The position numbers were made by a program, and so were the translations under genes. Below, one piece after another: positions 23,671 to 23,833 of a stretch of 64,000 nt of DNA. Position 1 is the stretch's first letter. The number at the start of each line of letters is the position of its first letter. The notes below the pieces were generated by a model that was given only the letters and a program-made list of their open reading frames with translations, made no database searches and was not told the DNA's origin. This DNA is from a virus, in IMG/VR virus record IMGVR_UViG_3300047323_000673, positions 64,001 to 128,000 of that record; one strand, 5' to 3'.

Positions 23671-23697
23671 AAACAAAAAAGCTCCATAAGGAGCCTT
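23671..23697 (-). terminator. intrinsic terminator in argS leader (candidate attenuator)
   Basis: minus-strand AAGGCTCC-UUAU-GGAGCUUU followed by UUUUGUUUUU, about 40 nt upstream of argS ATG. Confidence 0.8.
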
Positions 23698-23725
23698 AAA
23701 GTATGAAAGTAGGATTAACCTAACT

Positions 23726-23833
23726 TTATGACGGTTTAACTTTGATTGAGCAAAGACTACCATCTACTTTTTCTCCTTGAGCGTAAATAGATGTGTGTCG
23801 CCTGCGGATAACAATATTTGCAAAATTTTTCAT
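23726..23833 (-). CDS. candidate argS leader peptide MKNFANIVIRRRHTSIYAQGEKVDGSLCSIKVKPS
   Basis: hand-translated 35-codon ORF absent from the ORF track; CGC-AGG-CGA at codons 10-12 (23806-23798); no SD, AU-rich 5' region. Confidence 0.65.
   Translation of the reverse strand: MKNFANIVIRRRHTSIYAQGEKVDGSLCSIKVKPS

Follow-up and report, generated by a model that had tools for sequence, protein, structure and literature searches.

The DNA considered here is a window of 64,000 nucleotides (positions 64,001 to 128,000 of the IMG/VR record IMGVR_UViG_3300047323_000673), and our subject is the leader region of its argS gene, which, like argS itself and the predicted switch, lies on the minus strand; unless another locus is named, all coordinates are positions in this window. 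A spacer of 358 bp separates argS (coding sequence 23629-21959, 556 amino acids) from a divergent plus-strand gene that starts at 23988. The encoded arginyl-tRNA synthetase (ArgRS) was identified by its Pfam domains tRNA-synt_1d (1e-78) and DALR_1, and 27 ArgRS relatives share its HIGH motif and its KMSKS-like motif. With its Shine-Dalgarno (SD) sequence AAGGA at 23639-23635, the gene unit spans 23639-21959, and it is directly followed by an intrinsic terminator of its own (21956-21934), from which we conclude that argS is monocistronic. A second terminator, located upstream in the leader, therefore sits within a one-gene unit, whose order is putative promoter, leader, predicted attenuator, argS, and terminator.

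The leader contains an open reading frame (ORF) of 35 codons plus stop (23833-23726) that encodes MKNFANIVIRRRHTSIYAQGEKVDGSLCSIKVKPS, and its only arginine residues are specified by the three consecutive codons CGC AGG CGA (23806-23798). Arginine accounts for 2.4% of the codons of the contig, which is record G000 with its 180,807 bp, and all three codons are rare there, with CGC, AGG, and CGA making up 4.7%, 9.5%, and 7.1% of the arginine codons, respectively. An Arg-Arg-Arg run (RRR) occurs only once in the 50,513 codons of the contig's long ORFs. When both strands of the 18.7 kb of non-coding DNA were examined, four 9-mers encoding such a run were found, three of which are SD-like purine runs (AGGAGAAGG or AGAAGGAGA). 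The fourth is that of the argS leader, which is thus the only non-SD run of this kind in the contig's non-coding DNA and lies directly before argS. Downstream of the ORF follows an intrinsic terminator (23697-23669) with the stem AAGGCUCC-UUAU-GGAGCUUU at 23697-23678, the tail UUUGUUUUU, and a U-tract that extends to 23669. In form it matches the terminators that close genes at 21956-21934 and 26109-26086, and no other terminator-like site was detected in the surrounding 1 kb, for which shuffled sequences give an expectation of 0.2. An earlier note on this DNA had described the ORF with its sole arginine run, as well as a terminator followed by the argS SD, and both are present as it had stated.

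A metagenome scan yielded eight loci of the ArgRS lineage with 40-88% identity, and two of them, L088 (ArgRS 88% identical) and L089 (86%), carry a homologous block that starts at a motif some 70 nt before the AUG of the leader and extends as far as argS, next to upstream neighbour genes that differ from those of the window. Our comparison of leaders thus comprises three sequences. The leader ORFs of L088 and L089 encode MKNTTKITVLRRRFTAINSKRGKVDGRLRAFSKLTV and MKNTNKITALRRRFTILNSQWGKVNGRFCAFK, and the frame is open in all three cases (35 codons in the window, 36 in L088, and 32 in L089), with a shifting stop codon. What is kept is the AUG-AAA-AAY start, the arginine run, and the segments of RNA structure, and the start and the arginine run are separated by codons that are heavily diverged, yet open, with a length difference of exactly 3 nt that corresponds to an in-frame indel. 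The third arginine codon changes from CGA in the window to AGA in L088 and L089, which is a synonymous first-position exchange, and the relatives therefore read CGC AGG AGA. The check for conserved arginine runs in homologous leaders, which the earlier note had proposed, thus came out positively for both homologues.

The RNA between the arginine codons and the terminator can adopt alternative structures. A long hairpin, termed P1 (23805-23750), includes the arginine codons in its 5' strand and corresponds to an anti-antiterminator, or "1:2" hairpin. It comprises 22-25 bp across the leaders and has a minimum free energy (MFE) of -20.0 kcal/mol in the window, and the equivalents in L088 and L089 reach -22.6 and -23.1 kcal/mol. 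Its apical CUC/GAG pairing, which is CUCU/GGGG in both relatives, and its upper stem sequester AAGGAG and AAGUA, and this AAGGAG...AAGUA segment is a copy of the 3' arm of the terminator. The antiterminator 5' strand (23778-23765) consists of AAGGAG (23778-23773) and AAAGUA (23770-23765), and in folds in which the 5' strand of P1 is masked, these pair with 23693-23688 and 23703-23698. The 5' arm of the terminator (23697-23688) thereby doubles as the antiterminator 3' strand. Two further hairpins complete the arrangement: P2 (23764-23730; GAUGGU...ACCGUC with an inner CUUUG/CAAAG) forms when P1 is open and has a conserved lower stem, which is longer in L088 and L089, and P3 (23727-23706; AAAG-U-UAGG/CCUA-CUUU) lies just past the leader stop codon and is found in all three leaders. 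Most of this architecture had been noticed before. The proposed complementarity of AAGGAG to CUCCUU (23693-23688) recurs in the constrained MFE structure, and the inner and the post-stop hairpin fold as had been described. A second pairing, AAAGUAG (23770-23764) with CUACUUU (23712-23706), exists as a complementarity, but the fold prefers AAAGUA (23770-23765) with UACUUU (23703-23698) instead. The geometry of an attenuator as such is supported by our computations, but P1, the sensing element, had been overlooked.

Without constraints, each of the three leaders folds into P1, P3, and the terminator as its MFE structure (z-scores -2.6, -3.1, and -3.8). We then moved a ribosome footprint codon by codon along the leader ORF and calculated the state of the RNA before the 3' arm of the terminator is transcribed. 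With the footprint on the arginine codons, GGAG (GGGG in the relatives) pairs with the 5' arm of the terminator with a probability of 0.98-1.0 in all three leaders, and this pairing closes a three-way junction that encloses P2 and P3. If the ribosome is absent or has reached the stop codon, the 5' arm of the terminator is mostly free and P1 re-forms. Over the whole scan, the arm is sequestered (0.6-1.0) only with the A site at about codons 7-17, centred on the arginine run, which again holds for the three leaders. Elsewhere, sequestration mostly does not exceed 0.4, except that L088 and L089 show a short increase at codons 28-29; at the stop codon it amounts to 0.01-0.13. In the constrained folds, antiterminator and terminator are mutually exclusive, by AAGGAG/CUCCUU in the window and by GGGG/CCCC in L088 and L089. 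P1 holds the arginine codons and at the same time sequesters the antiterminator strand, and this explains why antitermination is predicted for a ribosome stalled at the arginine run and not for one at the stop codon. The expectation of the earlier note, namely antitermination with a ribosome at the arginine run and termination with a ribosome at the stop, thus agrees with the position-dependent folding of all three sequences.

The two relatives also differ from the window in ways that touch both alternative structures. Their leader terminator is rebuilt to AAAGCCCC-CAAAA-GGGGCUUUUUU, so that GGCUCC/GGAGCU becomes GCCCCC/GGGGC, which includes a compensatory change from U-A to C-G. In step with the exchange of the terminator arms from CUCC/GGAG to CCCC/GGGG, the upstream GGAG has become GGGG, and the antiterminator helix accordingly shows an A-U to G-C change as one compensatory pair that matches the terminator change. 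One further compensatory pair, G-C to A-U, is found in P3, and one in the main helix of P1, in which 82% of the alignment cells are paired. Taken over the whole structures, 88% of the alignment cells are paired in the off state and 90% in the on state, as compared with 39-54% in slid controls. We consider this covariation to be compatible with the attenuator model, and not as proof of it.

Upstream of the leader ORF, the motif AAAACTCTTTCTTTTTTCTTA (23906-23886) is kept in L088 and L089. It contains a putative -35 element TTTCTT (23899-23894), which is followed after 17 nt by a putative -10 element TAAGAT (23876-23871), and with equal spacing L088 has TAAGAT and L089 TAATAT at this position. 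Transcription would then start near 23864, some 30 nt upstream of the start codon of the leader. An exact match to the pattern AAAACTCTT[GT]C[CT] is found at no more than two sites in the 180 kb, of which one precedes the argS leader and the other a leader with phenylalanine codons (L086 12562-12542, minus strand), and a similar third site lies before a photolyase gene (G000:C1 ~173418, plus strand). The fuller shared motif is AAAACTCTT[GT]C[CT]TTTTT, after which TAAGAT (argS), TAAACT (Phe leader), or TAGAAT (photolyase) follows at 17 nt. This shared upstream motif is probably an extended -35 or UP-type promoter element. As a side aspect, an inverted repeat covers the putative argS promoter (23903-23876, minus strand), with ACTCT-N18-AGAGT in the window and ACTCTT-N16-AAGAGT in L088 and L089; the Phe leader is without this repeat, which could be bound as an operator by a regulatory protein acting alongside attenuation.

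The second site of the motif belongs to a leader on the same contig that resembles the argS leader in its build. Its ORF (L086:12404-12493, minus strand) encodes MNMLNKNNFSFFMFDFFGTQARGAILLKE and includes the stretch FSFFMFDFF, with six phenylalanines in nine codons. It is followed by a AAGGCGCC-UAAU-GGUGCCUUUUUUU hairpin with a U-tract (~12375-12350) and then by a gene for a single-chain PheRS-like protein (12237-11137). In the ribosome scan, sequestration was 0.84-0.99 over most of the phenylalanine run, as in the argS leader. The organism thus appears to use one design at two synthetase-type genes. BLASTN searches with the argS leader against the contig and all loci gave no paralogous leaders and returned only the shared promoter motif, and 77 matches of a 16-nt leader motif in viral contigs were taken as chance. 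Scans of viral contigs with ArgRS, carried out with the single sequence and then with an alignment, returned no relatives.

Together, we regard it as probable, with moderate confidence, that the argS leader is a ribosome-mediated leader-peptide attenuator that senses charged tRNA-Arg and controls the monocistronic argS gene of a bacterium. In this model, transcription would start about 30 nt before the leader AUG, and the default state would be off: the nascent RNA would form P1, the AAGGAG...AAGUA segment would be locked at its top, and the terminator would form and stop transcription before argS. When Arg-tRNA is scarce, a ribosome translating the leader would stall on the rare CGC-AGG-CGA codons and occupy the 5' strand of P1, and the freed AAGGAG...AAGUA segment would pair with the 5' arm of the terminator in the three-way junction around P2 and P3. 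The terminator could then not nucleate, and RNA polymerase would continue into argS. With plentiful Arg-tRNA, the ribosome would proceed to the stop codon, located within the segment that the antiterminator would enclose, P1 would re-form behind it after its passage, and transcription would again terminate. In vivo, the switch would thus respond to the supply of charged tRNA-Arg.

Several points weigh against this interpretation. The leader AUG of the window has no SD, as had been recognized before, and those of L088 and L089 are preceded by UAAGAA only. The ORF of the window extends 23 codons beyond the arginine run, unlike trpL or hisL, and the promoter role of the AAAACTCTTTCTTTTTTCTTA motif is something that we infer. 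The comparison comprises only three leaders, two of which are near-identical to each other, and covariation is thin: the compensatory pairs for which a comparison upstream of related argS genes had been suggested are indeed seen, but they number two to three, and shuffled alignments reach the observed score in 62 of 500 and 22 of 500 cases, which is not significant with three sequences. The conserved CGCAGGNGA is also within the P1 stem, and therefore structure alone could conserve part of it. In the ArgRS relatives of L094 and L097 (73-74% identity), whose spacers are short, the leader is absent. Finally, the closing helix of the antiterminator is short in L088 and L089, with 4-5 G-C pairs, and at equilibrium with the full terminator, the terminator wins in these two leaders; a switch would therefore have to act kinetically, as the classical attenuators do.

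The model also presupposes a bacterial source, whereas the record is filed as viral. A giant virus of eukaryotes, in which attenuation could not operate and the hairpin would act as a signal for 3'-end formation or polyadenylation, could be suspected from this filing, from the GC content of 26%, from the ankyrin arrays, and from the presence of ankyrin, DUF4116, WGR, and Upf1-like helicase genes. In addition, the GTDB species genomes that were searched contain no ArgRS above about 35% identity, and therefore no GTDB species carries this lineage. However, SD-like words (AAGG, AGGA, GGAG) occur at -13 to -8 of 41 of 190 ORFs in comparison to 4 in a control interval, which is a position-specific signal, 60 same-strand neighbour gene pairs overlap in an operon-like manner with a median spacer of 25 nt, and gene ends carry the GC hairpins and U-tracts of bacterial intrinsic terminators. 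An identical ArgRS is also encoded on a contig of 2.23 Mb, with close relatives on contigs of 1.3-2.2 Mb, and the lineage comprises more than 100 metagenome clusters, some of them on contigs of 1-2.3 Mb; about 25 relatives with 70-89% identity were found by protein search. The mimivirus early-promoter motif AAAATTGA is not enriched in the non-coding DNA of the contig, and there is no capsid or other viral hallmark among 23 ORFs scanned. These features of the sequence indicate, if indirectly, an uncultured AT-rich bacterium as the source, and the SD signal, the gene overlaps, the intrinsic terminators, and the Mb-scale contig make ribosome-coupled attenuation possible in the first place. We therefore rejected the giant-virus reading, with its mimivirus-style hairpin 3' end and AAAATTGA promoter, on the basis of the clear SD signal and the unenriched motif, and give it hardly any weight.

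Within a bacterial frame, the alternative folds would respond to anything that occupies the 5' strand of P1, and the switch could thus be worked by a factor other than the ribosome, such as ArgRS, uncharged tRNA, or a small ligand, that acts on P1 or on the junction, with the ORF being incidental. The missing SD of the window leader would fit this, CGCAGGNGA lies in a helix and could be conserved as RNA, and the three-way junction resembles the architecture of aptamers. On the other hand, the ORF has stayed open in all three leaders through an in-frame indel and a synonymous exchange of the third arginine codon, the remainder of the P1 5' strand diverges freely while the arginine block does not, no Rfam family including the T-box was matched at E-values up to 5-10, and a Phe-codon leader of like build is found on the same contig, so that we judge such a factor to be unlikely. 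Rather less likely still is an independent short transcript, be it a small RNA or a micro-protein of 35 or 41 amino acids, with argS being transcribed from a separate promoter past the terminator. A promoter-like TTTACA-16-CACAAT is present at 23671-23644, with the -10-like NANAAT kept in L088 and L089, and a second ORF (23763-23638, minus strand; 41 codons) has a perfect SD AAGGAG 9 nt upstream, crosses the terminator, and ends with a stop codon that overlaps the argS SD. Yet promoter-like matches are no commoner than in shuffled sequences (5 versus 6.6 and 65 versus 74), transcription starting some 7 nt downstream of CACAAT would begin within the argS SD, and no -35 element is conserved. Neither peptide is conserved beyond its start and RRR. 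The second ORF keeps its start in L088 and L089, but its lengths of 41, 18, and 12 codons in the window, L088, and L089 and the lack of arginine codons common to the leaders led us to reject it as a translated frame, and it probably arises as a side effect of the conserved helices. A separate transcript would, moreover, leave P1, its copy of the terminator 3' arm, and the linked change of both unexplained. Chance, that is, an AT-rich spacer that happens to hold an ORF, an arginine run, and a hairpin, is highly improbable: short ORFs and weak hairpins are common at 26% GC and the covariation of three sequences is not significant, but the entire region that begins with the promoter motif and ends with the terminator is kept beside argS in two contigs with different upstream neighbours, the arginine run is all but unique on the contig, and the z-scores of the folds range from -2.6 to -3.8. 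We also think it doubtful, and distinctly more so than the involvement of another factor, that this ArgRS is an accessory or exported copy and not, or not only, the housekeeping enzyme, or that the conserved I/L-RRR-x-T peptide is a tunnel sensor of a metabolite like SpeFL. The argS gene lies by itself among arrays of putative effector genes whose products are tail-tagged, and the ArgRS tail ...KQKLLNIPKQTKLKN resembles the [KR][KR]xK[VIL] ending that half of the contig's proteins carry but fails to match it; if the enzyme were exported, arginine starvation inside a host cell would induce a synthetase destined for the host. A sensor of the SpeFL type was rejected, as the peptides read VIRRRHT, VLRRRFT, and ALRRRFT, with neither histidine of HIRRXXH conserved and with no Phe cluster that could stand for the Phe-rich domain.

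Leader-peptide attenuation is known for the Trp, His, Leu, Thr, Ile/Val, and Phe operons and for a few synthetase genes, and arginine is usually described as being under the control of ArgR-type repressors, or of T-boxes in the case of argS. The argS leader shares with trpL, hisL, leuL, thrL, and pheL the 1:2, 2:3, and 3:4 alternatives, the placement of the regulatory codons within the first hairpin, on its 5' strand, and the intrinsic terminator. It differs in having three arginine codons as compared with 2-7 regulatory codons, and in its target, which is a synthetase gene and not a biosynthetic operon. Closest in this respect are the classical attenuator at pheST of Escherichia coli (pheM) and the predicted ones at trpS and leuS of Streptomyces (PMC1262725), which likewise have a leader with cognate codons and an antiterminator/terminator directly upstream of the synthetase gene, with feedback on the level of charged tRNA. 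In contrast to these, the argS leader concerns arginine, its ORF runs 20-23 codons past the regulatory codons, its antiterminator closes a three-way junction and not a simple 2:3 hairpin, and no sequence homology was detected. Elsewhere, arginine genes are T-box regulated (PMC1262725), and T-box leaders of argS are known in Firmicutes (PMC2494555). There, the regulated gene is the same, and so would be the output, antitermination upon uncharged tRNA-Arg, but sensing in the argS leader is predicted to occur via the ribosome and not by direct binding of tRNA. We saw no specifier loop or T-box sequence in the argS leader, and Rfam gave nothing above noise, with no match to RF00230 (T-box) at E-values up to 10 for the window and up to 5 for L088 and L089, nor to leader families such as Phe_leader or Thr_leader. 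The orf34/speFL leader, which precedes speF in Salmonella and E. coli, is similar in length, with 34 codons and two arginine codons in Salmonella (PMC6386406). As in the argS leader, consecutive arginines lie near codons 10-13, and a pause of the ribosome on them reshapes the mRNA that follows (PMC6386406; bioRxiv 10.1101/604074), which is predicted for the argS leader as well. However, SpeFL senses ornithine via its HIRRXXH motif and a Phe-rich C-terminal domain (bioRxiv 10.1101/604074) and acts on Rho termination and RNase G, whereas the argS leader has an intrinsic terminator.

Full-text literature searches revealed no attenuator with arginine codons on argS, in line with what the earlier note had supposed. 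The argS leader would thus represent a textbook mechanism at an amino acid and a gene for which we found no published example, and it most likely serves to raise the synthetase level when charged tRNA-Arg is low. If this is correct, ribosome-based sensing extends to arginine and, at the same time, to a synthetase gene of a bacterial lineage that is uncultured, very AT-rich, and probably host-associated, and the leader would constitute a compact natural Arg-tRNA sensor that, by its three different arginine codons, probably samples more than one isoacceptor. The advance would be incremental rather than conceptual.

Two side aspects concern the more distant relatives and the enzyme itself. Just upstream of argS at L090 (2418-2510) and L093 (867-909), whose ArgRS are 53% and 41% identical to that of the window, there are mini-ORFs of nine codons with two adjacent arginine codons, namely MNTQLLRRL, preceded by an SD, at L090 and MMLKLRRID at L093. 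The arginine and stop codons of the L090 mini-ORF form pairs with the region of the argS SD, with a fold z-score of just -1.2, and these mini-ORFs may reflect translational sensing of arginine, or chance. The C-terminus of the ArgRS of the window (21959-22010, minus strand) is a lysine-rich tail ending in ...GIDYYACKQKLLNIPKQTKLKN, and the tails of its relatives are similar. Among the contig's ORFs of at least 120 amino acids, 106 of 213 end in [KR][KR]xK[VIL], and argS is the sole housekeeping-type gene seen amid these tail-tagged arrays.

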